15,952 bases of DNA from a virus. Lineage: Duplodnaviria; Heunggongvirae; Uroviricota; Caudoviricetes. The notes beneath the pieces are model-generated. The model ran no database searches and was not told the DNA's origin. It saw only the letters and a program-made list of their open reading frames with translations. Positions 1 to 15,952 of this stretch are shown here, piece by piece. Both the position numbers and the translations under genes were made by a program. The stretch lies in the IMG/VR virus record IMGVR_UViG_2874920711_000013, positions 1 through 15,952 of that record. One strand, written 5' to 3'. Each line of letters opens with the position of its first letter. Position 1 is the first letter of the stretch.

Positions 1-1199
1 TCAGGCCGGCATATACCTCAGCAGACTGATATCCCGCGCGTTTTTCTTCAGCCCCTCCACATTCAGTCCCGCGATGGCCCGGCGGTATACCATCCGGCCG
101 CCACACAGCACGCATTCAAACGGGTCACGACTCAGGAACTGCTTCACCATTTGTGCATAGCACACCTTCGCCACCGGTGCCGGTTTATCCATCCCCAGAG
201 CACGGTACACCTGCGGCAGCTTCTCTCCACACACCCGGTTGGCAAGGAACCCGAAGTACCTCACCATCTTAAAAAACTTCTCCGGGATGTGCTGTTTCAG
301 CCTCGCGACCAGCTCACGCTGTGTCAGCGTTTCCGTCGCCGTTTCTCCCGTTTTGTGGTCCAGGTAACGGAAGCTCAGGCTCGCCCCTCCGTTGTAATGT
401 GCCAGCCGGGAGGCCGCTATCGGCGGCTTCTTCAGATAACGACCCAGGTAGCGCGCCGTATTCCTCCCGCCGGCCGTTTTTTTCGACATGTACACATGCC
501 AGTATTTTCCTCCGGCTTTCAGCACCAGGCTTCTCCTCTGTGATTCCGTCGTGATATGTGACAACGACTCCGGCATCGCCAGCCCTCTGACCACGCTTTC
601 AGAAGCCGTTGCCGCATATTCCACATCCACCGCGAACGCATCGCGTCTTTCAGGAAGCTCAGCTTTTTCCACTGACCATGCTTATTCAGATCTCCACAGG
701 TTACAGACACATGTACATGCGGATGCCAGTTGAGACGACGGCCATACGTGTGGATGGCGCAGAAGATACCGGGTTCCTGCCCCCGTTTCCGGGCGGCATA
801 CAGCAGATTCTCCACCGCCAGACGGCACACGTCATTCAGCAGCCACCGGTTGCTTTCGAACACCGGCCACAGCGTGTCCGGCAGGGTGAAGACCAGGTGT
901 ACCCAGTCGCAGTCAGGAAGACGATTCAGCTGTGTCGCTATCCACAGGTCTGTGGCCTTTTTTCCGCAGGACGGGCAGGCACGGCTGCCGCATGAGTTAG
1001 TGACGTATCTGACGTGGGGGCACTCAGGTTTATCGCAGTTGTATTCCTTCACGCCCAGTATCCGCGTGCCGCAGGCCAGCATTTTGGTGACAGCCTCAAC
1101 CTCGATATCGCGCAGACCGCCCGCATCCAGGAAGGATGTCCAGCACTGGTTGGCCGTGAACAGACGTTTCAGCGGGCGGGGAGTAAAAGCGGACAACAT
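1..1199 (-). pseudogene. IS91-family (HUH-Y2 rolling-circle) transposase, split across two frames (N-part 519..1199, C-part 1..672); C-terminus runs off the window start
   Basis: N-part has a Cys-rich zinc-binding motif (CPHVRYVTNSCGSRACPSCGKK) and the HUH motif (NWHPHVHV). C-part has the YxxxYxxK two-tyrosine motif (ARYLGRYLKKPP). The two frames are reconciled by restoring one base in the C-run at 583-585. Confidence 0.8.
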
Positions 1200-1208
1200 G
1201 AGGACGGA

Positions 1209-1397
1209 TTAACCCCCGGTATCCTGTAGCCGGGTAAGGGCTGCTGTGTCGCCACGGCGCTCCAGGATGGAGGCCGCGACCATCGCAGGTGGTGGGTCCA
1301 TGGGTTTGAGCATCTTCATCCAGTCCCATTCACGTTGTGAGAGCTTCTCAGCACCAACAGAGAGCAGAACGGTATCTATACTTTTGCGGGTCAACAT
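1209..1397 (-). CDS. hypothetical 62-aa protein immediately upstream of the IS91-family transposase
   Basis: ORF from the six-frame track only; no convincing Shine-Dalgarno and no recognisable motif. Confidence 0.25.
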   Translation of the reverse strand: MLTRKSIDTVLLSVGAEKLSQREWDWMKMLKPMDPPPAMVAASILERRGDTAALTRLQDTGG

Positions 1398-1603
1398 AAG
1401 AGGATGAGTCCTTAATAAAACAGGTCCTCAGAGCATACATATTCTGCGGAGCGTGCGGCAACAACAGGACGAACAGGGGCGGTTTTCAATTTGCAGCCGT
1501 CAGGCTGCCGTGGTTCTATCTGATGTAGTTCTTACAGGCTTCAGAGTATAGGGTCAGGAGATATTCTGGAGTATTAATTGGCATTTCCGTGAAAATATCA
1601 CGT

Positions 1604-1665
1604 ATTGATAGCTTTTCATCTTCTGTGATTTGCGGGCAAATCACAGAAGGTAGTTATCTATCAAT
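1604..1665. repeat. 62-bp composite palindrome: ATTGATAG-N8-CTTCTGTGATTTG-CGGG-CAAATCACAGAAG-N8-CTATCAAT
   Basis: Read directly: 13-bp perfect inverted arms (1620-1632 / 1637-1649) around a 4-nt centre, flanked at equal 8-bp spacing by 8-bp inverted arms (1604-1611 / 1658-1665). A second inverted TTGATA/TATCAA pair lies at 1801-1806 / 1828-1833. Confidence 0.8.
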
Positions 1666-1834
1666 AATATATTTATTAATAGGCAATCGCCTGAAAATAC
1701 TCTACTTGAATAATTTCTGGTACTTACCTATTAATAAGTAGTTCATTGATTGGTTTTCACCCAAAATTATTTGGGCCAAATATTTATAGATGTTTTCCGA
1801 TTGATAATAACAAAAAAACGGCAATATCTATCAA

Positions 1835-1872
1835 CAAAAAAAAGCAGATCCCGGTCAATCAGGATCTGCTTT
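1835..1872 (-). terminator. intrinsic terminator downstream of the P4-type integrase (bidirectional hairpin)
   Basis: 8-bp stem GCAGATCC / GGATCTGC (1844-1851 / 1862-1869) with a 10-nt loop. The minus-strand transcript has a U8 tract after the stem (plus-strand A-run 1835-1842). Confidence 0.6.
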
Positions 1873-1903
1873 TCCAGTTTTAATGATTTACGCTATTTCT
1901 GAT

Positions 1904-3165
1904 TCAGGCTGCCTTATGCTGCCGCGCATAAATGTACGGCGCGACATACCCCTCGCGGCACACATCCAGATAATCCGACCACCACTGCATCATGGCCTTT
2001 CTGGCCTCCAGATGCTCTGCTTTATGCACATATGCCGCCCGCACGCTGTTGCGCTCCTGGTGGCTCATTTGCCGCTCCACCGTATCGCGTGACCACAGGT
2101 CCGACTCCACCAGGGCGCTACAGGCCATTGCCCTGAGTCCATGCCCACAGACTTCAGTTTTCGTATCATACCCATCAGACGCAGCGCCCGGTTGGTGGTG
2201 TTTTCACTCATTGGCTTGTACGGATTATGGTCGCCGGGAAACACCAGATCCAGATGGCCGGAAAGCTCCTGTATCTGTTTCAGAATGGCAATCGCCTGGC
2301 GGGAGAGCGGCACGATATGCGGGGTACGCATTTTTGCGCCACGCCCCGAAAACCGTACTTTATCAATTGCCTCGCGGGTGGCGGGAATGGTCCAGATTTT
2401 GTGCCTGAAATCGATCTCGCTCCAGCGGGCGAAACGCAGCTCGCTGGAACGGATAAACAGATGCAGCGTCAGCCCCACCGCCAGCCGGGTTAACTCCCGG
2501 CCCTGCCGGTAGTCGCCAATGCGGCCAAGCAGTTCAGGCAATCGCTCCAGCGGTAAAGCGGGATAGTGATTCTTTACGGGTGAGGCGACAACGCCATCCA
2601 GATGCTGCGCCGGATTGCTTGCGGTCAGTCCCTGCTGAACGGCATAGCGCATGATGTTGCTGAGTTGCTGCCGGGTTCGGGACGCGACTTCCAGGAAGCC
2701 TTTATCCTCAATAATCAGCAGTAAAGCCGTGAAATCCTGCGTTTTAAGCGTGGCAACGGGCAGATGACCAATCGCCGGGAAGATATGGTTTTCCATACTG
2801 GCGAGAATACGGGCGGCATACTCAGCCGACCATTTTTTGTTGGTTTTGTGCCAGGCCAGCGCCACCGCCTTAAAGCACTTTTCAGGGGAGCAGGCTGCTT
2901 TCTCTGCCATGCGCTGCTGCGCCGGGTTGATATTCTGCGCCAGTAACTTACGGATACCGTCGCGCTGCTGCCTGGCTTCTGCCAGTGAGGCCAGCGGATA
3001 TGCGCCAAGACTGACTCTGGATTCTTTTCCGTTGAAACGATATTTGCGATACCAGATGCGTGAACCGCTCGGATTGACGAGCAGATACAGACCGTGAGAG
3101 CCGGAGAGTTTTACCGGACGGGAAGAGGGTTTTAACTTGCGGATTTTAGAATCGTTTAAAGACAT
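1904..3165 (-). pseudogene. P4-type tyrosine integrase (DUF4102 N-terminus plus phage-integrase catalytic domain), interrupted by one frameshift
   Basis: N-terminus MSLNDSKIRKLKP...GLYLLVNPSGSRIWYRKYRF is typical of P4-like integrases; ATG at 3165 with GGAG upstream. The catalytic C-terminus (HGLRAMACSALVES...SHQERNSVRAAYVHKAEHLEARK) is in another frame (1904..2182). The frames are reconciled by one extra base in the C-run at 2171-2173. The gene sits beside the 3' side of tRNA-Asn in the same orientation. Confidence 0.85.
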
Positions 3166-3326
3166 TTGAGGGTCACTCCAGAATCGAACCAAACTGCCCC
3201 CAGATCTGACCACCAAATTATCCCGATGCGGAGAGAAAACTAGATACGCACCGGGAAGGATTTTCACGCTAACTTACTGAATCGTAAACAAATAGAAACG
3301 TACAGATAAGCATGAAAACTTGAATT

Positions 3327-3402
3327 TGGCTCCTCTGACTGGACTCGAACCAGTGACATACGGATTAACAGTCCGCCGTTCTACCGACTGAACTACAGAG
3401 GA
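3327..3402 (-). tRNA. asnT: tRNA-Asn (anticodon GUU)
   Basis: 76-nt sequence on the minus strand, TCCTCTGTAGTTCAGTCGGTAGAACGGCGGACTGTTAATCCGTATGTCACTGGTTCGAGTCCAGTCAGAGGAGCCA, matching the E. coli Asn tRNA with encoded CCA. The asnT name comes from its position next to mtfA. Confidence 0.95.
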
Positions 3403-3420
3403 ATCGTGTGAACGGGGCGC

Positions 3421-3449
3421 ATATTACTTAGCGGTACCTTGTCTGTCAA
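3421..3449 (-). promoter_or_regulatory. sigma70 promoter for tRNA-Asn with GC-rich discriminator
   Basis: On the minus strand: TTGACA (3444-3449), 17-bp spacer, TAATAT (3421-3426), then GCGCCCC before the mature 5' end at 3402. AT-rich UP-like sequence upstream. Confidence 0.55.
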
Positions 3450-3502
3450 CACTAAATTTCATAAGTCATTTCAATTGGTTAATTAATCTGCAAAGTTGTT
3501 AA

Positions 3503-4300
3503 TTAATGAACATTCGTCGCCGAAAACGAGTCTGTATCATTAGCGTGATGCAGTCTCTGCAAAGGATCTTGTTGATAAAATTGGCAGAAACGTTGCCACA
3601 ATGAAGGGAAACGAGGAGCAAAAAGTTCTGGGGCGCTAAAGAAATATTCAGAAAGTACGGCAAAACATTCAGCAGGATCGCTGGCAGCATAAGCATCAAT
3701 GCTCGCCGCATTCTCGCCAACTAATTCGATTTCTTCCTGAATGTTGTTCATTGCAGCATGAAGATCGTGTTCCCAGCCAGCAACCTCACGCAACGGAATA
3801 AAGGGAACTCCGCTGGCGCGATCGCCGTTACGGGTGTCCAGCTTATGAGCGACTTCATGAATAATCAGGTTAAAACCAGAAGCATCAAAAGAATCTTGTA
3901 TATCCAACCAGTTCAAAACGATAGGCCCTTGCTGCCAGCTCTGACCTGACTGAACAATACGTTGGTTATGCACCAGACCGATATCGTCTTCCCATTCATC
4001 ATCGACCACAAATGGCGCAGGATAAATTAAGACTTCATGAAAACCATCCAGCCATTCCAGTCCTAACTCCAGAACGGGTAGGCAAAATAGAAGTGCTATC
4101 CGGCAGCTTCTTAATGAATCCAGTTCAAAGCTCTGTAAAGGAACAAGCCGCTTTTGCTGTAAAAAACGTTCGGCAAGAGTGACTAATTTGCTTTGTTCCT
4201 GTTCCGTCAGACACGTTAAAAGGGGGAACGATAGTGCTTCCTGCCAGGGAAGGGCAGTTTGATGTGCTGATTCTTGTACTTTCCAGGGCCACTTAATCAT
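3503..4300 (-). CDS. mtfA: MtfA (Mlc titration factor A; zinc-dependent peptidase family), 265 aa
   Basis: Protein begins [23 protein letters not shown] and contains the HEVAH zinc-binding motif. It lies between the Asn and Ser tRNA genes, as mtfA does in E. coli K-12. Confidence 0.9.
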
Positions 4301-4393
4301 CGTTTTGCTCGCAAACTCGTCACTTGAACAAAATTGCACGGACAGGGACTGTTAAAATGCCAAATTTCTTGGCATCATGGCAACCATCTGAAC

Positions 4394-4483
4394 GGAGAGA
4401 TGCCGGAGCGGCTGAACGGACCGGTCTCGAAAACCGGAGTGGGGGCAACTCCACCGGGGGTTCAAATCCCCCTCTCTCCGCCA
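4394..4483 (+). tRNA. serU: tRNA-Ser (anticodon CGA), class II tRNA with long variable arm
   Basis: 90-nt sequence GGAGAGATGCCGGAGCGGCTGAACGGACCGGTCTCGAAAACCGG...GGTTCAAATCCCCCTCTCTCCGCCA; anticodon loop CU-CGA-AA. Confidence 0.95.
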
Positions 4484-4528
4484 AAATTCAATCACTTATA
4501 CATCATTAAGTCAGTGACAAAAATCACA

Positions 4529-4559
4529 CTTGGAATTACTTGGAATATTTTCTTGGAAT
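4529..4559. repeat. three direct CTTGGAAT repeats between the serU 3' end and the end of int (candidate integrase arm-type sites)
   Basis: CTTGGAAT at 4529-4536, 4539-4546 and 4552-4559. The last two are a 13-bp tandem repeat inside the final int codons (ENIPRKYSK). Confidence 0.45.
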
Positions 4560-5561
4560 ATTTTCAGGTAACGGGACATCAAGTGTCGGTGAAACTTTAA
4601 CCTTCCTGTCATAGATTAGCACTTGCCCCTCGGTTTTGTGACCAGAGAAAAGTTGCTTATCCCGACTGCTTCCTTCATAGTCTGAAATTCCTTTCGCCTT
4701 CAGATCATGAAAGGTGAAGTCGGTTAAAATACCTGAAATTTTGCCTGCGCGATTTCTTGCTTCTACCCACATTTCGTTAAAGCCTTTGTACATATATCGG
4801 TTGCCGTATTGATTGCTGATTACATAGGCGGATGTTGGTAACTGTTTTGCTTTTTCGATCGCCGCCTGTAATCGTGGACTCCATGCTTTTATCTGTTTTT
4901 TTCCTGTTTTCCCTTGCTGGATAAAGATCCCGTCGTTTCCAATCTGCTCCCATTTCAGCGATAACACATCGGAAACCCTCGCTGCACACAGATAGGCAAT
5001 TTCCATTGCGATAAAAACAGGAAGAGGTGCAACGCTTAATACTGCCTGGTATTCTTTGTCGGTTACATATCGTTCGCGGTTTTTGGCCTTGAATTTACTT
5101 ACACCTGCACATGGGTTAGCCTTCACGTACCCTCGCTCATACCCCCAACTGTAAACGCGGGACATACTGCTTTTTTCATGGTTGGCTTGCGTTTTACTCT
5201 GTTCCCCTCTCTTGTCCATGTATCGACGGATGTGTTCTGGTTTTATGGAATCTGCCGGCACCTTACCGAATACGGCAAGCAACTTTTTTTGATGTTGCAG
5301 ATAATCTTTTTGTGTTCTTGGACTGAGGTCACTGTAATAGGCGCTGGCGAGGAATTTTTCCCACAAGCGACCGAATGTCATTGCACGATCGCGATTATTT
5401 ACAGTTTCCTCATACTTTTTCCATAAAGCAGCTAAACCATCCTTGATGGCGGTTAGTGTTACAGATTCTCTGGATGTTGGTTTCCATACATAACTATATT
5501 TATTTGGGTATACATTTGGAGGTAATTTTTCGTGTTCAGGATTTTTCCTTCGTCTTCCCAT
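4536..5561 (-). CDS. int: prophage integrase, lambda-Int family tyrosine recombinase, 341 aa
   Basis: N-terminus MGRRRKNPEHEKLPPNVY resembles the lambda Int arm-binding domain. Catalytic region carries R (AARVSDV), K (QGKTGKK), H (FTFHDLK), H (SGHKTEG) and Y (VLIYDRK). The gene converges on the serU 3' end and is coupled to the upstream xis (TGATG overlap at 5559-5563). Confidence 0.9.
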   Translation of the reverse strand: MGRRRKNPEHEKLPPNVYPNKYSYVWKPTSRESVTLTAIKDGLAALWKKYEETVNNRDRAMTFGRLWEKFLASAYYSDLSPRTQKDYLQHQKKLLAVFGKVPADSIKPEHIRRYMDKRGEQSKTQANHEKSSMSRVYSWGYERGYVKANPCAGVSKFKAKNRERYVTDKEYQAVLSVAPLPVFIAMEIAYLCAARVSDVLSLKWEQIGNDGIFIQQGKTGKKQIKAWSPRLQAAIEKAKQLPTSAYVISNQYGNRYMYKGFNEMWVEARNRAGKISGILTDFTFHDLKAKGISDYEGSSRDKQLFSGHKTEGQVLIYDRKVKVSPTLDVPLPENIPRKYSK

Positions 5562-5730
5562 CAGATCGCACCAAAATTCGGCTCTACCTCGCGTGGTGGT
5601 AAAGTTTTATTGCAGGTAAATAGATCCCGGCTGACAATCGGTTTGCCACTACGATTGGTATAGAACGGAAGCCCGTTTTCCATTAACCATTTTCGCTGGT
5701 GGCTTGCATATTTGCAGCCCGTTAATATTA
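5561..5730 (-). pseudogene. xis: excisionase (Xis-like winged-helix protein) interrupted by an IS insertion; this is the 3' part, and the first 11 codons lie at 6647..6680
   Basis: Removing the IS (5731..6644) and one TA copy restores a 67-aa ORF MSSLFLTEDELLILTGCKYASHQRKWLMENGLPFYTNRSGKPIVSRDLF..., which fits the excisionase pattern (LTG...W...NG.PF....GKP.V.R). Its stop overlaps the int start. Confidence 0.6.
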
Positions 5731-6644
5731 GGCTGTGTCCCTTAATCATCTGAGCTATAGTAACTGTCTGTTTACACAACATATTGAACTATGGCTCGCT
5801 ACGACCTTCCCGATGAGGCATGGACCATCATCAAGCCCCTGTTACCTCCTGAACCCGCCACACCACGGGCCGGACGCCCATGGGCTGAGCACCGTAAAAT
5901 CATCAATGGCATGTTCTGGGTGTTATGTTCCGGTGCACCATGGCGCGATTTACCCGAACGATATGGGTCATGGAAAACTGTTTATAACCGCTTTAACCGA
6001 TGGTCAAAGTCAGGCGTGATTAATATTATTTTCAACAGGTTGCTTTCGCTACTTGATGCAAACGGCTTTATTGACTGGTCTGCCACCGCGCTGGATGGCA
6101 GTAATATCCGGGCGCTGAAATGTGCCGCCGGTGCTCAAAAAAACATCCCGATATCGACGGAGATAATGGGCTGGGTCGCTCTCGCGGCGGTTTTGGCACC
6201 AAAATCCATCTGGCAACAGACGGAAGTGGCCTCCCGTTAAATATCGTGCTAAGCCCGGACAAGCTCATGAAAGCCAGTTCGCGCAACGACTTCTGGACGG
6301 GATTGGCGTTCAGCGTCAGAACGGCAGCATGAAACGCCGTGGACATGCGGTACTGGCTGATAAAGCGTATTCAGGGCGCGCATTGCGCAACGAGCTGAAA
6401 AATAACGGTATAAAGGCAGTAATCCCCGAAAGTCAAATGAGAAAATGGCATCGGATGGACGTGCACAGCTTGATCGTGATGCGTACTGCAATCGTAATGT
6501 CGTTGAACGGTGCTTTGGGCGGCTGAAAGAATATCGCCGCATCGCCACGCGTTACGACAAAACGGCGAGAAATTACCTGGCGATGGTGAAACTGGGCTGC
6601 ATCCGACTCTTTTATCAACGCTTACGTAATTAAGGGACACAGCC
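5731..6644 (+). mobile_element. IS5-family (IS427-like group) insertion sequence, 914 bp, inserted in xis
   Basis: Perfect 16-bp terminal inverted repeats GGCTGTGTCCCTTAAT (5731-5746; reverse complement at 6629-6644) flanked by a TA direct duplication (5729-5730 and 6645-6646). The transposase begins MARYDLPDEAWTIIKPLLPP. Confidence 0.8.
5791..6633 (+). pseudogene. IS5-family transposase (OrfA/OrfB), reading frame broken at three homopolymer sites
   Basis: Conserved transposase segments lie in four successive frames (5791-6240, 6120-6332, 6329-6526, 6445-6633), including ADKAYSGRALRNELKNNGIKAVIPESQ and ERCFGRLKEYRRIATRYDKTARNYLAMV. Shifts are at the A7 run 6137-6143, CCCGG at 6254-6258 and AAA at 6435-6437; each is -1. 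The A7 site could be a natural programmed frameshift. Confidence 0.75.
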
Positions 6645-6738
6645 TAGCAATTCATCTTCGGTTAAAAATAAGCTGCTCATAGCTATATCTCATAACCGCC
6701 GCTAACTATATACGGTTAGCGGCAATTAGGGTTGAACA

Positions 6739-8010
6739 TTAAAAATCAGCCTGACTCGGGATCAGTTTTTGCCAGATAGCTGAAACGTATTTTGCCTGGT
6801 AACGAGCGTCATCAAGTGCATTATGGCGCTCACCTTCGAATGGAATAGCCGTTCTGGCATCGAAGTCTATGGCTTTCCCCAGCTCAACGATTGTGCGTAC
6901 ATCGCGATCGTTGTAGTAACGCCACGGGCAGGGGATCCCCTGCCGTTCGTATGAACGGCGCAAAATCGTGTTGTCGAAGTTGGCTCCATTTCCCCAGACC
7001 TGAACAAAAAATTCACCGGAGTTTTCGTCGATAAATTCCCGCAATTGTAACAGTGCATCATCTAACGGGATTTCATCGGTCATAATGGCAGATTGCGCTT
7101 CGCGTGATTGCTTAAGCCACCATTTAATGGTGTCCCGATCAATGACTCCGCCAGCAGTTTCCAGATCGATAGTCTTACTAAATTCGGGTCCCATATCTCC
7201 GGTTTGCGGATCGAAAAATATTGCACCTATTGAGATGATCGGGGCATCAGGATTTTTTCCCATGGTTTCAAGGTCGATCATTAGATGGTCACACGTCCTG
7301 CTGGTGGATGTGATTTCGTGATGACCATTCACCGTAATTAAGGGATCTGCCGTCTCGCCAGTTTTACTATCGCTGGCGTGGTCCTGAGCGCTGCCAGCAT
7401 TCTCCTTGTGTGGATGTTCAGCGCCTTCCATTTCCTCCGGATCATTTTCCTGAACTTCAACCTGATTCTCTTCATCGAATGTTTTCTGGTATGTTGCGTC
7501 GTCCATCACCGCGCCACAATCAGGGTAGTTGCCGCCACCGCTCTGACCGCAGGCGGTGCAGACTTTTTCCGGTTCCTGTTGCGCTACTGGTTCGGATTGT
7601 TTCGTTTCTGGCTCGTTTTGTAACGCATTTGGGCTGTTTTGTTCCGCTTTTTGGTCGTTCCGTTCCGATTCATGCTGGTTCTGGTTCACAGAATCGCGAG
7701 TCTGGATCCCCTTGACCCATTTCGGATCATTAGGGTCGCTAATCCCCTCAACAAATTCACCACGCGATACAGCAAGTAACTTATCGGCGTCAGGCTGGCT
7801 GATATTGGCTGCCTGCATAATTTTGTTTACTTCGTCAGCGGTGACTTTTACTTGGTTAGCGGAACTCACCTGCGACTGAGCATCCAGCGACTGCGCGTTC
7901 TGGCAATGTTCAGTTGTATCCGGTTCCATTGTTTCAGTTGTTGCCTGTTCACCTGCCATTGCGTCAGATGGTTGTGGTTTTTCTTCTTCTGTTTCACGCT
8001 CAGTAACCAC
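6739..8010 (-). CDS. prophage exonuclease: DnaQ-like DEDDh 3'-5' exonuclease domain after a long acidic low-complexity region; true 5' end uncertain
   Basis: C-terminal domain has the three DEDDh motifs: [21 protein letters not shown] and [14 protein letters not shown]. The listed start is a GTG with a poor ribosome-binding site. Coding-like sequence continues upstream in another frame (8045..8219) across an A5 run at 8038-8042. Confidence 0.75.
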
Positions 8011-9177: not shown

Positions 9178-9270
9178 TATTGATAAACCTCATCACAGAT
9201 TTAAGGGTGAACAAATCTCTGCCATTGCTGACATATAAGAATGAAACTGGATATTTATTACGGTGCTGTT

Positions 9271-9462
9271 TTAAAATCCTGCCGGGATTTCGTTATTATC
9301 CTGGTGAATAACTTTATCGACCGGATAACAGTTGCCTGGAATTTTCTGTTCGGTTGCTGCTGCCATACATTCCTGCATTGTTCTGTGAACACTGACTGCA
9401 ATATCAACTGGCTCTCCGGAAACAAGAAAAACCGTCAGAATAAGTGCAAATACTGGATTCAT
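9271..9462 (-). CDS. ydfD: YdfD-like small membrane/lysis protein, 63 aa
   Basis: MNPVFALILTVFLVSGEP... with a hydrophobic N-terminal segment. Its start overlaps the dicB stop (TCAT at 9459-9462). Length and position match Qin-prophage ydfD. Confidence 0.7.
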   Translation of the reverse strand: MNPVFALILTVFLVSGEPVDIAVSVHRTMQECMAAATEQKIPGNCYPVDKVIHQDNNEIPAGF

Positions 9463-9647
9463 TGTGCACATCCTTTTGGCATCAGACGTAAACGGGCCAG
9501 CATTGAAACAATGCATACTTTATTTAATAACTCCCGTTCGTGTTTTCTTTTGTTAATGGCCTCTTCAGTAAATACAGGATTACTGATAGTGACACCAATT
9601 TCAAAACAACCTTCAGACGTATTAACGTTTGGTAATAACGTTTTCAT
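9459..9647 (-). CDS. dicB: DicB cell-division inhibitor, 62 aa
   Basis: MKTLLPNVNTSEGCFEIGVTISNPVFTEEAINKRKHERELLNKVCIVSMLARLRLMPKGCAQ. GAGGG ribosome-binding site 8 nt upstream of the ATG at 9647. It lies directly downstream of DicF. Confidence 0.85.
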   Translation of the reverse strand: MKTLLPNVNTSEGCFEIGVTISNPVFTEEAINKRKHERELLNKVCIVSMLARLRLMPKGCAQ

Positions 9648-9820
9648 TATCGCGCCCTCAACAATGAGTTTTGTGATGCGGTGCCTGGTGCCTCCAGGTG
9701 ACGTTAACCAGTTAACAATTAACGCCGGATACAGAGAATCCACCCATAACACTGTTTTTGGTTTTAACTGTTCCGCGTGCGCTTAGCCGCATTCACCGCA
9801 TCACAAAATTCACTTTAAAA

Positions 9821-9873
9821 AGGGCGGCAGAGCAGTCACGGAGTAAAACTGATACCGCCAAACGTCACCAGAA
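9821..9873 (-). ncRNA. dicF: DicF small regulatory RNA (Hfq-dependent antisense RNA, ftsZ inhibitor)
   Basis: Minus-strand sequence TTTCTGGTGACGTTTGGCGGTATCAGTTTTACTCCGTGACTGCTCTGCCGCCC followed by a T-run (9816-9820). The terminator hairpin is GGCGG...CCGCC. Identification is from my recollection of the DicF sequence. Confidence 0.8.
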
Positions 9874-10215
9874 AATTGATAACAGAGGGCGTTGCAGCGG
9901 GGTTGTCACTTAAGCGTATGGTCAACCTGACAACCCGGTGTCCTCAACGGGGGAAGGAATAACCCCGCCATACTTACCGCCGCGCCATTTCGCGGATTGC
10001 CACAACCGGAAGCGCACGGTCGACGAAAATTTAACGACAGGCTATCTATGAACCAGCTACCTCGCCGTGCGCTTTCGCGTTATGGTCTGACTTTTCAGGG
10101 AAATATCCTTTCAGTAAACTGTCAGTGCCGGATGCTCACCCGTGTCCGGCGCACGCACTCCACCTCACCCGTGGAGAACTCCTTAATTACTAACCTTAGC
10201 TTTGTTGATTAGCTA

Positions 10216-10434
10216 CTAACGCGGGTATGTAATCATTCTGGCAATGCTTAATGCCGCTGCTTTTTCCAGATTGGTGATATCCTGCTCCAGAGCGGACAGA
10301 TTTTCAGCCTGCTTAGCCCTGGCTTCATTAGCCCATTTCAGATCCTGCGCTGCATTAATTTTCTGGCGCATCCACTCATAAAGTTCATCATCGGTATAGT
10401 CTGGCGCGATGATGACGGGTTCTCGTTTCTGCAC
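10216..10434 (-). CDS. ydfC: YdfC-like prophage protein, 72 aa (GTG start)
   Basis: GTG start at 10434 preceded by GAGGA 6 nt upstream. Size and position match Qin-prophage ydfC. Confidence 0.7.
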   Translation of the reverse strand: MQKREPVIIAPDYTDDELYEWMRQKINAAQDLKWANEARAKQAENLSALEQDITNLEKAAALSIARMITYPR

Positions 10435-10463
10435 GCTGATTCCTCGCGGTGCTGTTTCGCTTA

Positions 10464-10592
10464 TCAGCCGTTAGATTTTGCCGAACTGGAAAGCGCCTGT
10501 TTAAATTCGCTGAAGCTGAGAGCTTCTTCGCCTTCGGCAAGGCCTTCGAAGTATTCTTCGTAAGCCTTTTCCATGATTGTGTCGAAATCCAT
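10464..10592 (-). CDS. ydfB: YdfB-like small acidic protein, 42 aa (shorter than the 60-aa cutoff of the ORF track)
   Basis: Found by hand: ATG at 10592 with AGGTGG 7 nt upstream, encoding MDFDTIMEKAYEEYFEGLAEGEEALSFSEFKQALSSSAKSNG. It is tightly packed after ydfA (stop 10594-10596). Confidence 0.65.
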   Translation of the reverse strand: MDFDTIMEKAYEEYFEGLAEGEEALSFSEFKQALSSSAKSNG

Positions 10593-10593
10593 A

Positions 10594-10749
10594 TCACCCA
10601 CCTGAATTTCTTTCCAGCCAGCGACGCGCTCCAGATTCGGTTTTAAACGTTTTGCTTTTGGTATACGTCATTGCGGTGAAGGTGCCGTCCTGGTTGGGAA
10701 ACACGCCGTACACCAGAGATTCGTTGTTGCCAAGATCGATAGTATCCAT
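10594..10749 (-). CDS. ydfA: YdfA-like small protein, 51 aa
   Basis: ATG at 10749 with GAGG 7 nt upstream, encoding MDTIDLGNNESLVYGVFPNQDGTFTAMTYTKSKTFKTESGARRWLERNSGG. The longer track ORF (to 10872) reads into the IS66 end and is not native. Confidence 0.7.
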   Translation of the reverse strand: MDTIDLGNNESLVYGVFPNQDGTFTAMTYTKSKTFKTESGARRWLERNSGG

Positions 10750-10893
10750 GCTGACCTCATTTCCCCTTAACGCCGGGGTAGCGGAACAAAAACCTGCTGC
10801 ATAGTTATTAAGTAAGCGCCCCATCAGCGACGTCTTGTGAAAATTGTCCTGTCTGGCAACAATCGCGCCCATCTATATTGATGGACACGAACG

Positions 10894-11568
10894 ATGAATT
10901 CCCAGACAACAAAAGATATTCCCTGCTTCCGTTCTTATTTGCCTGATGCCCTGCGTTTAAGATTTGAAGATAAACTGACCATCCGGGCCATCGCTCAGCG
11001 TCTGGGTCTCAGTCATTCCACAATACATACGCTTTTTCAGCGATTTCTTGCATCCGGTATCGCATGGCCATTGCCCGATTCAGTTTCATTCGCTCAACTT
11101 GACGCCATCCTTTATGCCAACAGAAAGAAGGAATTAACAGAGCCTCAAATCAGAGAAGGCTCATGGCGAAAAGAACGGCGAACCAGCTATAGCCGTGAAT
11201 TTAAGGCCCGTCTGGCTAAGCAGGCGTTACAGCCTGGGGCTGTTGTTGCCCGGATCGCCAGAGAACACGATATCAATGATAACCTGCTGTTTAAATGGAA
11301 AAGCCAGTACGAGGACGGCTTACTGAGCGATGATGACATACAGGAATGCATGCCTGTCCCGGTGGCACTGACTGATACGCCGGAGCCGACCAGACCAGTT
11401 ACAAATCCCTTCTGGCGTAACAAGCATGATGAGCGCCCTGAGGGGGCTCCCGGAAACGTCCCACGGTGCGAGCTGCATCTTAAATCAGGTGTGGTAAAAC
11501 TGTTTGACCCTCTCACTCCGGAACTGTTACGGGCGCTAATCCGCGAAATGAAAGGGGGTATCCGATGA
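10894..11568 (+). CDS. IS66-family accessory protein OrfA (helix-turn-helix), 224 aa
   Basis: C-terminal half (RRTSYSREFKARLAKQALQPGAVVARIAREHDINDNLLFKWKSQYEDG) matches the IS66/IS3-type OrfA pattern. ATGA overlap with the next gene at 11565-11568. Confidence 0.7.
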   Translation: MNSQTTKDIPCFRSYLPDALRLRFEDKLTIRAIAQRLGLSHSTIHTLFQRFLASGIAWPLPDSVSFAQLDAILYANRKKELTEPQIREGSWRKERRTSYSREFKARLAKQALQPGAVVARIAREHDINDNLLFKWKSQYEDGLLSDDDIQECMPVPVALTDTPEPTRPVTNPFWRNKHDERPEGAPGNVPRCELHLKSGVVKLFDPLTPELLRALIREMKGGIR

Positions 11569-11912
11569 TAACGCTGCCGACCGGTACCAGAATCTGGATC
11601 ATCGCTGGCATCACAGATATGCGTTGTGGCTTCAATGGCCTGGCTTCGAAGGTGCAGAACACGCTGAAAGATGACCCGTTCTCCGGGCATATCTTCGTCT
11701 TCCGGGGCCGCAGTGGCAAAATGGTGAAAATACTGTGGGCCGATCGTGACGGGTTATGCCTGTTCGCCAAACGCCTGGAACGGGGCCGCTTCGTCTGGCC
11801 GGTGACCCGGGAAGGGAAAGTGCACCTGACGCCAGCTCAGTTATCCATGCTACTGGAGGGGATCGCGTGGCAACATCCCAAACGGACAGAACGGCCTGGC
11901 ATCCGGATATAA
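11565..11912 (+). CDS. IS66-family TnpB (Orf2), 115 aa
   Basis: MITLPTGTRIWIIAGITDMRCGFNGLASKVQ...KMVKILWADRDGLCLFAKRLERGRFVWP is the characteristic IS66 Orf2 sequence. Confidence 0.85.
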   Translation: MITLPTGTRIWIIAGITDMRCGFNGLASKVQNTLKDDPFSGHIFVFRGRSGKMVKILWADRDGLCLFAKRLERGRFVWPVTREGKVHLTPAQLSMLLEGIAWQHPKRTERPGIRI

Positions 11913-11931
11913 CCCGTGATAAAACAAGGGA

Positions 11932-13487
11932 ATGAACAATGAACTCCCCGATGATATTGAGCTGCTTAAAGCCATGTTGCGTAAGCAACAGAGTCGGCTT
12001 CGACAGTATGCCTGTCAGGTCGCGGGCTATGAGCAGGAAATTGAACGGCTGAAAGCGCAACTCGACAGGTTGCGTCGTATGTTGTTCGGCCAGAGTTCAG
12101 AGAAAAAGCGTCATAAGCTTGAAAATCAGATCCGACAGGCAGAAAAACGACTGTCGGAACTGGAAAACCGGCTGAACACAGCCAGAAATCTTCTGGAAGA
12201 TGCATCGTCAGTCACAGATTCACCTGACACCAGTCCCCCGTCAGAAAACCCGATCGCCAGTAAGCCTGAATCCCCGGGAGACACATCGCCTTCTGCCTGC
12301 TGAAACCAGTTGCCCGGCCTGTGGAGGTGTTCTGAAAGAAATGGGGAAACAATCTCAGAGCAACTGGATATCATTAATACCGCCTTTAAAGTTATCGAAA
12401 CCATACGTCCCAAACTGGCCTGTAGCCGGTGTGATGTCATCGTTCAGGCACCACTTCCCCTAAACCGATCGAACGCGGTTATGCCAGTGCAGGGTTACTT
12501 GCACGGATCCTGGTCAGCAAATATATGGAACATATCCCTTTATATCGCCAGTCAGAAATATACGCGCGACAGGGCGTGGAGCTGAGCCGTAATACCATGG
12601 TGCGCTGGGTATCAGAAATGGCAGACAAACTCCGTCCTCTGTATATAGCGCTGAATGACTATGTTCTGGAGGCAGGAAAGGTGCACGCAGATGACACTCC
12701 GGTGAAAGTACTGGCCCCGGGGAACGGAAAGACGAAAACGGGTCGTCTGTGGGTATACGTCAGGGATGATCGTAATGCGGGTTCATCCCTGCCGGCAGCC
12801 GTCTGGTTCGCGTATTCGGCAGATCGCAAAGGAGAACATCCGCAGCTCCACCTGGCAAAGTATCAGGGCGTACTGCAGGCTGATGCCTATGCAGGTTATA
12901 ACGTACTGTACGAAACGGGCCGGGTGAAGGAAGCCGGGTGCCTGGCCCACGCCCGCCGAAAAATCCATGACGAGGATGTGCGCCGTCCGACAGAAATGAC
13001 TCAGGAAGCGCTCAGACGGATAGCAGAGTTATACGACATAGAAGCGGAGATACGTGGCAGTCCGGCAGAGGAACGGCTTGCAGTCAGAAAAGCCAGAAGC
13101 GTCCAGTTGATGCAGTCGTTGTACGACTGGATACAGTTGCAGAGGAAAACGCTGTCGAAATATGCGGAGATGGCGAAGGCGTTCGACTATATCCTGAATC
13201 ACTGGAATGCGCTGAACGAGTTCTGTCGTGACGGCTGGGTGGAAATAGACAACAACATCGGTGAAAACGCGTTACGATCGGTGGCGGTTGGAAGAAAAAA
13301 TTATCTCTTTTTCGGCTCAGACAAGGGAGGAGAAAGTGCGGCGATCATCTACAGTCTGCTGGTCACCTGCAAACAGAACGAAGTGGAGCCGGAGGACTGG
13401 TTGCGCGAAGTGATCGAGAAGCTCAATGACTGGCCGTCGAACCAAGTGCATGAACTGCTGCCCTGGAACTTCTCGTCTGTAAAATAA
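11932..13487 (+). pseudogene. IS66-family transposase TnpC, broken by four single-base frameshifts
   Basis: N-terminal coiled coil (11932-12303), CxxC segment LPAETSCPACGG (frame of 12200-12463), SEQLDII...[16 protein letters not shown] (frame of 12310-12585) and the DDE domain LYRQSEIY...HADDTPV...[10 protein letters not shown] (12525-13487) lie in different frames. Shift sites are GGG 12276-12278, CC/TT near 12289-12292, GGGG 12343-12346 and CCCC 12457-12460. Confidence 0.85.
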
Positions 13488-13639
13488 TCCTTACGCTACG
13501 TACTTCTCGGGGCGCTTACGTTATTAAAGTTGAACCCTGCCGTCATGTTCTTACGCCTCGGGCTGGCTACTTAACCCCTGACCACTGCCTGGTAACTCGA
13601 AGTATTGCCCTGCATTCTGTGGGCGGGGTGGGTGGCAGG

Positions 13640-13690
13640 CATATAATGTACTTTGCGTTCATTGTTGTAAAGTACTTTTAGTACATTTTG
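13640..13690 (-). promoter_or_regulatory. candidate leftward early promoter (pL-like) with flanking operator half-sites
   Basis: On the minus strand: -35 TTTACA (13666-13671), 17-bp spacer, -10 CATTAT (13643-13648). The heptamer ATGTACT or its complement occurs at 13647-13653 and 13680-13686, with palindromic AGTACT at 13671-13676. Confidence 0.4.
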
Positions 13691-13761
13691 TGTGTAAAAA
13701 AATGAGATGGGATAAAGTGAAGCACAAACCCGGAGGAAGGCGCTACCGGATTTATGCTGGT

Positions 13762-14181
13762 TTAAGAGGCTTTTTGTTTTTTCTTTCGTGCTAACTCTTC
13801 GTAAATTGCATTGTACTTCTGTTTTTTCTCTTCAAGAGTTTTTAAAAGTTCATCTGTCTCACTGTCAGGGAGCTCGTCCAGAAGGTCAATGATGATTTTT
13901 TGTCTTGGATTTAACTCCTGATAGAAACGTACCTGTCCACTTTCTTCTGTATCCTCTCCCAAAAGATAGGTTGGTGTTGTTCCTATTAGTGTTGCTAATT
14001 CCCTTAATTTCTCCCGGCGAGGAATTGTTTCGCCATTAAACCATTTGCTAACCGCTTTTGGTGTTAATTTCATTCGACGGGCAATTTCTGCCTGCCTTCC
14101 ATGTTGTTCATAACCAGCGTTTTCACAGGCTAGCGCAAGCCTACTGGCGAACTCTTTACGCGCTTTATCTTCATGAACCAT
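13762..14181 (-). CDS. dicA: prophage repressor, DicA/RacR-like (N-terminal XRE-type helix-turn-helix, no peptidase domain), 139 aa
   Basis: Helix-turn-helix region FASRLALACENAGYEQHGRQAEIARRMKLTPKAVSKWFNGETIP with a charged C-terminal tail. It is divergent from the Cro-like gene and, once IS66 is removed, lies directly upstream of ydfA-ydfB-ydfC-dicF-dicB. The dicA name is by synteny only. Confidence 0.75.
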   Translation of the reverse strand: MVHEDKARKEFASRLALACENAGYEQHGRQAEIARRMKLTPKAVSKWFNGETIPRREKLRELATLIGTTPTYLLGEDTEESGQVRFYQELNPRQKIIIDLLDELPDSETDELLKTLEEKKQKYNAIYEELARKKKQKAS

Positions 14182-14260
14182 AAGTTCAATGATATTCGCT
14201 CTTGAATGTACTGTCAGTTCTGTTATAGCATGTACTCAAAGTTCACATTGTGAGGGTGAT
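14182..14260. promoter_or_regulatory. divergent immunity control region (back-to-back pRM-like and pR-like promoters with operators)
   Basis: Leftward: -35 CTGACA (14212-14217), 17-bp spacer, -10 TATCAT (14189-14194), 7 nt before the repressor ATG, implying a leaderless transcript. Rightward: -35 TTGAAT (14202-14207), -10 near 14224-14229, GAGGGTG ribosome-binding site at 14253-14259. ATGTACT heptamers at 14206-14212 and 14230-14236. Confidence 0.5.
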
Positions 14261-14515
14261 ATGAACCAGAAAACACTTGAAGATGTAATCAAAACTGTTC
14301 GCGTTGCTGTTGTGGCCGACGTTTGTGGTGTCAGCCAAAGAGCAATCTATAAATGGATGGATAACGGAAAATTGCCTCGCACAGAATATACCGGCGAAAC
14401 AAATTACGCTGAAAAAATCGCTCTTGCATCAAACGGATTATTTTCTGCCGATGCAATTTTAACTATTGGCAGGAATAAAACTACTACGAAAAAGCTGATG
14501 GGAGTTGATTCATGA
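14261..14515 (+). CDS. Cro-like / YdaS-like helix-turn-helix protein, 84 aa
   Basis: ATG at 14261 with ribosome-binding site; helix-turn-helix segment VADVCGVSQRAIYKWMDNGKLP. Divergent from the repressor and translationally coupled to the next gene (ATGA at 14512-14515). Confidence 0.7.
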   Translation: MNQKTLEDVIKTVRVAVVADVCGVSQRAIYKWMDNGKLPRTEYTGETNYAEKIALASNGLFSADAILTIGRNKTTTKKLMGVDS

Positions 14516-14838
14516 AAATCAAGCATGAACACATCCGCATGGCGATGAATGCCTGGGCGCATCCGGACGGCGAAAAAGTACCGGCTGCGAAAATTACCAA
14601 AGCGTATTTCGAGCTGGGAATGACGTTCCCGGAACTGTATGACGACAGCCATCCGGAAGCCCTGGCTCGCAATACTCAGAAAATTTTCCGCTGGGTGGAG
14701 AAAGACACCCCTGATGCGGTTAAAAAAATTCAGGCGTTGTTACCAGCTATCGAAAAAGCAATGCCACCTCTGCTGGTGGCCCGAATGCGCAGTCATAGCT
14801 CAGCCTATTTTCGGGAACTAAATAGCTGCGCGGAATAG
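14512..14838 (+). CDS. YdaT-like protein, 108 aa
   Basis: N-terminus MKIKHEHI matches what I recall of Rac-prophage YdaT. The stop codon TAG (14836-14838) lies 2 bp before the IS630 left end. Confidence 0.6.
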   Translation: MKIKHEHIRMAMNAWAHPDGEKVPAAKITKAYFELGMTFPELYDDSHPEALARNTQKIFRWVEKDTPDAVKKIQALLPAIEKAMPPLLVARMRSHSSAYFRELNSCAE

Positions 14839-14840
14839 TA

Positions 14841-15952
14841 GATCACTTTGAGGGAACTTAGCCCGGATTGTGCGATCTGATCAATCGCCAAATCAAAACA
14901 AATCACCAACCGGACTGAGCAATGCCGATCATAGCACCAATTTCCCGTGACGAACGACGCCTGATGCAGAAAGCCATCCATAAAACACACGATAAAAATT
15001 ATGCCCGCAGACTGACTGCCATGCTGATGCTGCACCGGGCGACCGTGTCAGCGACGTTGCCAGAACGCTCTGCTGCGCCCGTTCCTCTGTTGGACGCTGG
15101 ATTAACTGGTTCACGCAGTCGGGTGTTGAGGGACTGAAATCATTACCTGCCGGGCGTGCCCGTCGCTGGCCGTTTGAGCATATCTGCACACTGTTACGTG
15201 AGCTGGTAAAACATTCTCCCGGCGACTTTGGCTACCAGCGTTCACGCTGGAGTACAGAACTGCTGGCAATAAAAATCAATGAGATAACCGGTTGCCAGTT
15301 AAATGCCGGAACCGTTCGCCGCTGGTTGCCGTCTGCGGGGATTGTGTGGCGAAGGGCTGCGCCAACTCTGCGTATCCGTGACCCGTATAAAGATGAAAAG
15401 ATGGCAGCAATCCATAAAGCACTGGACGAATGCAGCGCAGAGCATCCGGTCTTTTATGAAGATGAAGTGGATATCCATCTTCATCCCAAAATCGGTGCGG
15501 ACTGGCAACTGCGCGGACAGCAAAAACGGGTGGTCACGCCGGGACAGAATGAAAAATATTATCTGGCCGGAGCGCTGCACAGCGGGACAGGTAAAGTCAG
15601 CTATGTGGGCGGCAACAGCAAAAGTTCGGCGCTGTTCATCAGCCTGCTGAAGCGGCTTAAAGCGACATACCGTCGGGCGAAAACCATCACGCTGATCGTG
15701 GACAACTACATTATCCACAAAAGCCGGGAAACACAGAGCTGGCTGAAGGAGAACCCGAAGTTCAGGGTCATTTATCAGCCGGTTTACTCGCCATGGGTGA
15801 ATCATGTTGAACGGCTATGGCAGGCACTTCACGACACAATAACGCGTAATCATCAGTGCCGCTCAATGTGGCAACTGTTGAAAAAAGTTCGCCATTTTAT
15901 GGAAACCGTCAGCCCATTCCCCGGAGGCAAACATGGACTGGCAAAAGTGTAG
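14841..15952 (+). mobile_element. IS630 (Tc1/mariner-like insertion sequence), partial; right end beyond the window
   Basis: The transposase matches my recollection of IS630 (MPIIAPISRDERRLMQKAIHKTHDKNYARRLTAML...HGLAKV). The left boundary is estimated (within about 5 bp) from the TA dinucleotide at 14839-14840. Confidence 0.8.
14922..15952 (+). pseudogene. IS630 transposase with a single-base frameshift
   Basis: N-terminal 40 aa are in one frame and the rest (..ELVKHSPGDFGYQRSRWSTELL...MPSAGIVWRRAAP...) in the -1 frame. Restoring one G in the GGG run at 15037-15039 gives a continuous reading frame. Confidence 0.85.

Follow-up and report, generated by a model that had tools for sequence, protein, structure and literature searches.

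Single-base losses in G and C homopolymers split genes in an IS-rich Shigella prophage region and very probably reflect consensus errors of one assembly

Results

Organization of the window and comparison set

The window, by which we mean the whole stretch of 15,952 nucleotides analyzed here, corresponds to GenBank CP026824.1 (GCA_002949875.1), a Shigella dysenteriae-type chromosome, with 100% identity over 14,300 bp. It contains an IS91-family element, a P4-type integrase gene, copies of ISSfl7, ISSfl3 and IS630, and a prophage exonuclease gene, together with the intact genes mtfA, lambdoid int, and cI (Table 1). Deficits were called by alignment of the window to close relatives, using as comparators independent assemblies that have identical IS insertions at identical sites. 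Relatives of this kind are S. dysenteriae E670/74 (CP027027), UYIS01000021, AFFZ01000066, and six short drafts; the site-by-site comparison employed L010, L011, and L012, drafts L013–L018, and L043–L045 (L045 being a draft).

Table 1. Features of the window and positions of the frame breaks and single-base deficits.
Feature	Position	Strand	Remarks
IS91-family element	1–1516	-	window begins at transposase stop codon
C4 to C3, IS91-family transposase	583–585	-	CCCC in all relatives
G4 to G3, non-coding AT-rich spacer between IS91 and P4-type integrase	1773–1775	.	GGGG in L010, L012, L014, L015
P4-type integrase gene	1904–3165	-	420 aa, cut to 366 aa by loss at 2171–2173
C4 to C3, P4-type integrase	2171–2173	-	CCCC in nine independent assemblies
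ISSfl7 (IS5 family)	5727–6647	+	between xis-like gene and exonuclease
A7 tract with slippery heptamer A_AAA_AAC (6138–6144), annotated programmed -1 frameshift site of ISSfl7	6137–6143	+	not a defect
C4 to C3, ISSfl7 orfB	6254–6256	+	CCCC in RMDEC364, FDAARGOS_943, and syntenic copies of L010, L011, L012
C5 to C4, ISSfl7 orfB	6424–6427	+	alignment to intact copies and relatives
Prophage exonuclease gene	6739–9177	-	813 aa
G4 to G3, prophage exonuclease	8080–8082	-	alignment to relatives
G5 to G4, exonuclease	8155–8158	-	GGGGG in syntenic L010, L011; GGGTG in more distant E. coli
G4 to G3, exonuclease	8211–8213	-	alignment to relatives
ISSfl3 (IS66 family: tnpA, tnpB, split tnpC), 44-bp-deletion variant	10812–13519	+	
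44-bp deletion junction, ISSfl3 tnpC	12262–12279	+	between 9-bp direct repeats TCCCCGGGA; one repeat copy left, 12271–12279
G5 to G4, ISSfl3 tnpC, start codon region of 382-aa ORF (ATGGGGG)	12343–12346	+	relatives
C5 to C4, ISSfl3 tnpC	12457–12460	+	relatives
G4 to G3, non-coding, between ISSfl3 and cI-like repressor	13621–13623	.	GGGG in MLI114, L011, L043, L044, draft L045
IS630	14830–15952	+	inserted after ydaT-like gene; window stops at transposase stop codon
IS630 transposase	14922–15952	+	343 aa, truncated to 71 aa by loss at 15037–15039
G4 to G3, IS630 transposase	15037–15039	+	GGGG in orthologous copy of two relatives; least certain site

Single-base deficits in the window

Alignment to the relatives reveals 12 one-base deletions and no one-base insertions, confirming that the frame breaks described in an earlier note on this DNA are present in the deposited sequence. 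All 12 fall in runs of G or C having a true length of 4 or 5; ten break genes and two are intergenic. Wherever a comparator spans one of the sites, its run is the longer one, and the comparators are mutually concordant at every G/C run. Among runs of at least 4, 12 of 69 G/C runs are shortened versus none of 223 A/T runs (Fisher p = 1.4e-8), with 8 of the 51 G/C runs whose true length is 4 and 4 of the 18 whose true length is 5 being affected. The A7, A8, and T7 tracts of the window are not shortened, and all 26 A/T runs of 6–8 are intact, indicating that the longest runs are not preferentially affected, contrary to run-length-driven slip-strand mutability. Relative to E670/74, 10 one-base indels and 8 substitutions are found over 12.6 kb, with only ∼2 substitutions in 11 kb outside IS91. 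When the 12 bases are put back, every ORF is reopened at its reference length.

The positions given in the earlier note agree with the alignment in part: those at 583–585, 2171–2173, ∼6254, and 15037–15039, and two of its four sites in the IS66 element, are recovered, and the rest are not. A break assigned to 6435–6437 in ISSfl7 is located at 6424–6427, and the runs at 8038–8042 and 8254–8259 are unchanged relative to the relatives, the true exonuclease losses (at 8080, 8155, and 8211) lying around codons 322–366 of 813 and not at the edge of the gene. Neither are the breaks confined to IS, integrase, and exonuclease genes as had been proposed, since two sites are intergenic and yeeO, cbl, and the mlrA region outside the window are also affected. 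The single-copy genes mtfA, lambda-type int, and the repressor are intact, as the note had stated, but they simply have few susceptible runs (2, 3, and, for cI, 0), and the single-copy genes yeeO and cbl are split elsewhere.

Frame breaks of other kinds in ISSfl7 and ISSfl3

Two frame breaks in the window are, as judged from the sequence comparisons, to be regarded as genuine biology, namely a programmed -1 frameshift in ISSfl7 and the 44-bp deletion of a multi-copy ISSfl3 variant. The A7 tract of ISSfl7 had been counted as a defect. Its slippery heptamer is in the orfA frame, and orfB overlaps in the -1 phase; no indel is found in the tract relative to intact ISSfl7 copies, and the RefSeq annotation of the intact copies of RMDEC364 and FDAARGOS_943 joins the two parts of the CDS under the remark 'programmed frameshift'. 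In the motif, the -1 overlap, and the annotation, the site agrees with programmed -1 ribosomal frameshifting in insertion sequences (IS1-type A_AAA_AAC motif). No significant RNA structure is detected downstream of the slippery site, the fold of 6145–6215 having a minimum free energy of -21.5 kcal/mol (z = -0.40 relative to shuffled sequences). Reading orfA with a -1 shift and two restored C bases yields a transposase of 281 aa. Programmed frameshifting accounts for just one of the sites that the earlier reader had listed.

The break at 12276 in the IS66 element, previously taken for a homopolymer loss, is a deletion of 44 bp between direct repeats. It splits TnpC into ORFs of 123 and 382 aa, with the break just after 12270. 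The deletion does not occur in the intact ISSfl3 copies of FDAARGOS_943 and is common to the syntenic copies of L010 and L011 and to many others; entries for the 123-aa product occur in 127 collection blocks. This ISSfl3 copy resembles non-autonomous IS derivatives with internal deletions, in that the deletion variant is present in many copies and in several Shigella genomes beside intact copies of 533 aa.

Broken and intact gene products in other assemblies

Protein counts refer to exact matches, and the frameshift products tested are those of the integrase (366 aa), exonuclease (337 aa), IS91 (226 aa), YeeO (217 aa), TnpC (320 aa), and Cbl (125 aa). Intact integrase, exonuclease, IS91, YeeO, and TnpC products are found on 5 to 61 other contigs, many of them short-read Logan assemblies. 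The IS91 transposase (399 aa) is split into ORFs of 226 and 191 aa and is reopened to 399 aa by restoring one C; the 226-aa product is confined to the source contig, whereas 6 contigs have the intact form. The 366-aa integrase product is likewise limited to one contig, that of the source, compared with 23 for the intact 420-aa form, including Logan contigs, and restoring one base restores the ORF.

In the exonuclease gene the three losses amount to a net loss of 3 bases, so that the frame is regained. A ribosome would meet the break at 8211–8213 first, giving a product of 337 aa, which is found on the source contig only, whereas the intact 813-aa form is found on 17 contigs, including Logan contigs; putting back the three bases yields an open ORF of 813 aa. 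The C-terminal ORF of 406 aa is found on one other contig only, where it is clipped by the contig end. The 320-aa TnpC product caused by the loss at 12343–12346 is again restricted to the source contig, the 382-aa form being present on 61. That loss recurs in another ISSfl3 copy within the source genome, from which the loss at 12457–12460 is absent; the latter difference is best read as copy-to-copy scatter and not as an inherited pattern.

Similar lesions elsewhere in the source genome

Lesions of this type in the same assembly also split yeeO, cbl, and a second P4-type integrase gene beyond the window, and the mlrA region just outside the window has three further G-run losses. The YeeO (217 aa) and Cbl (125 aa) frameshift products are found on the source contig only, and intact YeeO on 5 contigs. 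A second locus of 20 kb, compared with AMJQ01000141, has 19 one-base G/C deletions, no one-base insertions, and ∼9 substitutions; the genes split here include those for capsid, scaffold, terminase, portal, and ParM, and nearly every gene of the P2 prophage is affected. In the same genome rtcB is broken into three ORFs and a porin gene into two, the losses outside the window occurring at ∼1 per kb. The subset of runs that is shortened varies among copies of one IS, both for ISSfl3 and for IS630, in which sites other than 15037–15039 are shortened in 4, 3, and 1 of nine copies. A 151-aa Cbl product resulting from the same type of lesion, outside the window, is present on 26 contigs, including Logan contigs, and for this reason not all G/C-run contractions of the source genome need be errors.

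Discussion

Origin of the deficits

The pattern of deficits, their confinement to one assembly, and their spread across the genome are demonstrated here. The losses are one-directional, limited to G/C runs, unseen in independent assemblies, and blind to gene function and copy number, with IS630 as a partial exception to their not being seen elsewhere. The one-base frame breaks are very probably consensus errors of the single deposited assembly CP026824.1, due to under-calling of G and C throughout the genome, so that the earlier suggestion of sequencing or assembly error is strongly supported. Under this explanation the consensus would drop one base from G or C homopolymers with a true length of 4–5, occasionally 3, at a rate of about 0.75–1 per kb across the whole genome irrespective of what the DNA encodes, and the apparent breakage of a gene would scale with the number of susceptible runs in it. 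The more specific proposal of unpolished repeat copies is not supported, as 6 of 30 G/C runs of at least 4 are shortened in IS DNA and 6 of 39 in non-IS DNA (Fisher p = 0.75), and intergenic DNA and single-copy genes are hit. If the losses are consensus errors, the broken genes of the window would almost all be artefacts and would provide no evidence of gene decay.

We infer a platform of PacBio-type long reads without short-read polishing, both from the published error signature and from the accession series of CP026824.1, which we take to fit such data. In homopolymers of G or C, the consensus built from PacBio data 'tends to miss a G or C', leading to shifted reading frames (PMC4849082), and in one 3-Mb genome 561 homopolymer deletions were left after three rounds of Quiver (PMC4888979). 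The window resembles these errors (CLR, HGAP/Quiver-type) in being deletion-only and G/C-specific, in affecting short runs, in having ORFs split genome-wide, and in that the errors are gone in short-read or independent assemblies (PMC4849082, PMC4888979). The rate in the source, ∼1 per kb, is nevertheless far above 561 per 3 Mb (PMC4888979), suggestive of low coverage or a complete lack of polishing.

Pseudogenes and IS elements do accumulate in Shigella genomes, and genuine slip-strand decay, the alternative raised in the earlier note, would attribute the losses to real, strain-specific mutations inactivating genes of mobile elements and prophages that a reductively evolving genome can dispense with. 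The real 44-bp deletion in tnpC and the cbl frameshift seen on 26 contigs are in its favor, and the window has in common with Shigella reductive evolution an IS-rich chromosome and real IS insertions into a prophage. It differs, however, in that the one-base lesions are absent from relatives having these IS insertions and that intergenic DNA and the single-copy housekeeping genes yeeO and cbl are affected at the same rate; with rtcB also broken, the losses are not limited to dispensable genes, and ∼1 loss per kb would disrupt about one gene in two. The losses are specific to this assembly, whereas the syntenic IS91, ISSfl7, ISSfl3, and IS630 copies of relatives keep full-length runs. Moreover, only deletions, only G/C, and only runs of 4–5 are involved, with A7 and A8 tracts unchanged, the losses vary between copies of one IS, and one-base indels outnumber substitutions. 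At the testable sites no identical frameshifts are found in independent isolates, barring a weak and ambiguous IS630 signal, and we regard slip-strand decay as very unlikely. Nor do the lesions behave as inherited pseudogenes would, since relatives that have the element in question at the identical position lack them. Real homopolymer frameshifts in a mismatch-repair-deficient hypermutator are also conceivable in principle, since loss of mismatch repair raises the number of one-base indels in homopolymers. Such strains, however, exhibit gains as well as losses, a steep dependence on run length that includes A/T runs, and many transitions, whereas here there are no insertions, none of 223 A/T runs is changed, and only the ∼2 substitutions outside IS91 separate 11 kb of the window from E670/74, making this explanation extremely improbable.

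The IS630 site

Among the IS copies of the source genome, the differing loss subsets of ISSfl3 and IS630 argue for error, and the presence of the IS630 loss at 15037–15039 in all nine copies retrieved argues against it. In a mixed case, most contractions would be artefactual, while the G4 to G3 contraction in IS630 would be a true allele, inherited within a defective IS630 lineage and spread through the source chromosome by trans-mobilization or gene conversion. Corroboration from outside the assembly exists for this site only and is weak. The contraction is found in 9 of 9 retrieved source copies, in which other G/C sites are shortened in 1–4 of 9, and exceeds by far the mean rate of ∼17% per run, although the sample is biased, 8 of the 9 copies having been found by querying with the frameshift product. 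An identical 71-aa product is present in drafts of S. sonnei 53G and 4822-66. Products shifted in the same way comprise one of 84 aa annotated in an NCTC S. dysenteriae assembly and a 60-aa variant found on 58 contigs, some of them from Logan and ENA; the plasmid IS630 copy of the neighboring accession CP026822.1 retains G4 yet shows another G/C loss. Against this, the exact 71-aa product comes from NCBI assemblies only and is absent from the short-read assemblies of Logan and ENA, and the 121-bp IS630 allele has no exact match among 167 plasmid records. We therefore consider a heritable IS630 allele unlikely, though with an appreciable chance of being correct. In both E670/74 and the NCTC strain (L044), the orthologous IS630 copy occupying this insertion site retains G4 and a coding sequence for 343 aa, the NCTC copy being without substitution relative to the window.

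Window layout and one-base deficits

The window is an IS-rich segment of a Shigella-type chromosome, and its positions 1-14300 are 100% identical to GenBank CP026824.1 (GCA_002949875.1; 4.97-Mb chromosome, hereafter the source). Among complete E. coli genomes no syntenic counterpart of the whole window was found; the best hit covers 58%. Syntenic comparators were found by an exact-protein look-up of MtfA, and the same IS elements are present at the same sites in S. dysenteriae E670/74 (CP027027.1), UYIS01000021.1, AFFZ01000066.1, and six short draft contigs. Indels were listed from BLAST alignments of the window with these relatives and with reference IS copies.

Features of the window and positions at which one base is missing (run length in relatives, then in the window)
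Feature	Position	Strand	Run length	Remark
IS91-family element	1-1516	-
Deficit, IS91 transposase	583-585		C4 to C3
Deficit, intergenic	1773-1775		G4 to G3
P4-type integrase	1904-3165	-		adjoins tRNA-Asn 3327-3402
Deficit, P4-type integrase	2171-2173		C4 to C3
mtfA	3503-4300
tRNA-Ser	4394-4483			integration point of lambdoid prophage remnant
Lambdoid int	4536-5561			prophage remnant, also with xis-like gene
ISSfl7 (IS5 family)	5727-6647			inserted in prophage
Deficit, ISSfl7	6254-6256		C4 to C3
Deficit, ISSfl7	6424-6427		C5 to C4
Prophage exonuclease	6739-9177
Deficit, exonuclease	8080-8082		G4 to G3
Deficit, exonuclease	8155-8158		G5 to G4
Deficit, exonuclease	8211-8213		G4 to G3
dicB and ydfABC region; cI-, cro-, ydaT-like genes				rest of lambdoid prophage remnant
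ISSfl3 (IS66 family)	10812-13519			inserted in prophage
Deficit, ISSfl3 tnpC	12343-12346		G5 to G4
Deficit, ISSfl3 tnpC	12457-12460		C5 to C4
Deficit, intergenic	13621-13623		G4 to G3
IS630	14830-15952			inserted in prophage
Deficit, IS630	15037-15039		G4 to G3

Relative to the IS references and syntenic relatives, the window is one base short at 12 places and has an extra base at none. When the 12 bases are put back, all ORFs are open at reference length (IS91 transposase, 399 aa; integrase, 420 aa; exonuclease, 813 aa; TnpC, 382 aa; IS630 transposase, 343 aa; ISSfl7 transposase, 281 aa). Alignment to relatives confirms at ten coding sites the claim of the earlier note that the frame breaks are one-base homopolymer losses, although two further sites are intergenic and the breaks are not limited to IS, integrase, and exonuclease genes as it had proposed. 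One of its ISSfl7 losses is real but was placed ∼10 bp away. No change is found at 8038-8042 or 8254-8259, where exonuclease losses had been suggested; the three actual losses lie mid-gene and sum to 3 bases, so that the reading frame is regained downstream. Viewed from distant E. coli, the lesion at 8155-8158 resembles a non-homopolymer loss of T, but the syntenic relatives show a G5 to G4 contraction.

Base specificity and spread in the source

When runs are grouped by corrected length, a base is missing from 8 of 51 G/C runs of 4 and from 4 of 18 G/C runs of 5, whereas all 223 A/T runs of at least 4 keep their length, among them eight 7-base tracts and one 8-base tract (Fisher p = 1.4e-8). 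Platforms with base-independent homopolymer miscalls should affect A7 and A8 tracts as well. The proposal that the losses are assembly errors is supported, but their confinement to repeat copies is not, as shortened runs are no more frequent in IS DNA (6/30) than in other DNA (6/39; p = 0.75). The intact genes that the earlier note set against the mobile ones have few susceptible runs, 2 in mtfA, 3 in the lambdoid int, and 0 in the cI-like gene, and at ∼17% per run their escape is expected by chance.

Outside the window, the same record shows C4 to C3 or G5 to G4 losses in yeeO, at two sites in cbl, and in another P4-type integrase, as well as a cluster of three further G-run losses in the mlrA region, and the source rtcB and porin genes are in three and two pieces, respectively. 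Aligned to AMJQ01000141.1, a 20-kb P2-like prophage locus lacks one G/C base at 19 sites, has a one-base insertion at none, and differs by ∼9 substitutions; its genes for capsid, scaffold, terminase, portal, and ParM are all split. The loss density is about 0.75-1 per kb in roughly 56 kb examined, and by extrapolation to 4.97 Mb the source appears to contain several thousand false one-base deletions. The ParM-like gene of the P2-like locus (L020 8525-8547) also carries, compared with AMJQ01000141.1, a tandem duplication of 23 bp, which, unlike the one-base losses, is probably a real difference.

Frameshift products in other assemblies

The truncated integrase (366 aa), exonuclease (337 aa), IS91 (226 aa), YeeO (217 aa), TnpC (320 aa), and Cbl (125 aa) products occur on the source contig only. 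Otherwise identical intact proteins are found on 23 contigs for the integrase, 17 for the exonuclease, 6 for IS91, 5 for YeeO, and 61 for TnpC, many of these contigs being from Logan short-read assemblies and from named Shigella dysenteriae. The search for identical frameshifts in independent isolates, which the earlier note regarded as evidence against an artefact, returned these products from the source alone, with IS630 ambiguous. A 406-aa exonuclease C-terminal ORF on a second contig is not a shared frameshift, as the ORF ends at the contig end. The two ISSfl3 copies of the source have one of six losses in common, and at other G/C sites the source IS630 copies show losses in 4/9, 3/9, and 1/9; because the subsets differ between copies of the same IS, the losses look like scattered error rather than inheritance.

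A separate case is a 151-aa Cbl product (L009 18403-18858, a source locus; cbl lies ∼4 kb left of the window), which arises from a C4 to C3 contraction and is present on 26 contigs, including Logan assemblies. This frameshift may be genuine and a lineage marker, and for this reason read-level confirmation is needed site by site.

Origin of the one-base losses

The one-base breaks are an assembly artefact, and the pattern is best accounted for by an assembly consensus that systematically drops one base in short G/C homopolymers. The accession series of CP026824.1 is, we assume, PacBio-only. PacBio consensus is prone to omit G or C within G/C homopolymers, causing reading-frame shifts (PMC4849082), and in a 3-Mb genome 561 homopolymer deletions were left after three Quiver rounds (PMC4888979). 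The G/C one-base omission in the window corresponds to this published signature of long-read consensus.

Slip-strand decay of mobile-element genes, the alternative raised previously, and a mismatch-repair hypermutator would both yield real contractions, but both are rejected on the base specificity, direction, and density of the losses, their non-sharing, and the low substitution count. The window differs from E670/74 by 10 one-base indels and 8 substitutions, 6 of the 8 being inside IS91, and no G/C run differs among the three main relatives. Moreover, several thousand frameshifts would break about half of the genes, a load that we infer to be implausible in a living isolate. Of the 8 substitutions, five fall within 155 bp (537-691) around the IS91 frameshift site, a cluster that points to gene conversion among copies of IS91 or to a local problem in the consensus.

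The result concerns data quality and is a warning about a GenBank record, without biological novelty. Pseudogene counts, gene-loss inference, and protein prediction from CP026824.1 would be badly inflated, and the uses affected include studies of Shigella reductive evolution and IS activity.

The IS630 site

Each of the nine IS630 copies retrieved from the source carries the G4 to G3 contraction at 15037-15039, but the sample is biased, since eight were found by searching with the frameshift product. Two S. sonnei drafts (AKNE01000008, ADUU01000051) carry it too. Related IS630 products that have this shift are known from other assemblies, and one of them is on 58 contigs, including Logan and ENA assemblies. 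The exact 71-aa product was not reported from Logan or ENA assemblies, and no exact match to the allele was found among 167 plasmid records. At the same insertion site, the orthologous IS630 of E670/74 and of the NCTC strain reads GGGG and encodes 343 aa, and the NCTC copy has no substitutions relative to the window. Taken together, it is unlikely that the contraction is real at this position. The wider reading, in which a minority of contractions are real, the IS630 G4 to G3 allele marks a genuine frameshifted lineage, and the split-TnpC ISSfl3 may still be mobile, draws on the presence of the allele in every retrieved source copy and its recurrence on other IS630 backgrounds, and we regard it as quite improbable. 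If true, trans-mobilisation or G-run slippage would have let a frameshifted IS630 lineage spread although its transposase is truncated.

Other Shigella drafts have a separate one-base deletion two bases further on (GGGGCGACC to GGGGCACC), which gives a second 71-aa product, and the region may be a mutational or an error hot spot. The IS630 copy of L041 (CP026822.1, a S. dysenteriae 96-3162 plasmid of neighbouring accession, GenBank-only, with 3 features in the plasmid table) has a CCC to CC loss, and several other CP0267xx-CP0268xx plasmid records have an IS630 match without an annotated feature. The same defect may be present in other assemblies of the CP026822.1 batch.

Genuine frame breaks and other features

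Genuine biology in the window is of known kinds only: the ISSfl7 programmed frameshift, an internally deleted ISSfl3, and IS insertions in the prophage. The A7 tract at 6137-6143, previously listed as a loss, is identical in intact ISSfl7 copies and contains the heptamer A_AAA_AAC in the orfA frame. RefSeq annotates the transposase of intact copies as a joined CDS with "programmed frameshift", and the ISSfl7 transposase is made by programmed -1 frameshifting on this heptamer, which is of the same type as that of IS1. No significant structure is predicted in the 71 nt downstream of the slippery site (z = -0.40).

The first tnpC break, also previously attributed to a homopolymer, is a 44-bp deletion between 9-bp direct repeats (TCCCCGGGA; junction 12262-12279) that splits TnpC into ORFs of 123 and 382 aa. 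The deletion is common to the syntenic ISSfl3 copies of the relatives and to many others (the 123-aa product is in 127 blocks of the collection), and several Shigella genomes have deleted copies, on their chromosomes and on invasion plasmids, beside intact 533-aa copies. The deleted ISSfl3 is a real multi-copy IS variant; its many copies imply that spread followed the deletion, presumably by mobilisation in trans. When one base is added by eye to the nearest homopolymer, lesions can be misplaced, and a programmed frameshift or a genuine deletion of 44 bp can pass for an error. The tnpA of some relatives' ISSfl3 copies contains an 8-bp duplication, CATACAGG.

In L012 (AFFZ01000066.1), the right end of ISSfl7 (window 6646) abuts the left flank of IS630 (14818), so that ∼8.2 kb of prophage (6647-14817) is either deleted or lost through a draft mis-join. 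The P4-type integrase is only ∼88% identical to the integrase preceding ybtS in E. coli MLI114, and beside it lie ∼390 bp of AT-rich DNA (1517-1903) and then IS91, so that its island cargo is absent or replaced. The lambdoid integrase (4512-5561) is an open 341-aa ORF in the window and all relatives; its orthologue in E. coli D3 and MLI114 is labelled "frameshifted" in RefSeq with a CDS 24 nt longer, and the integrase C-terminus may be ancestrally damaged.
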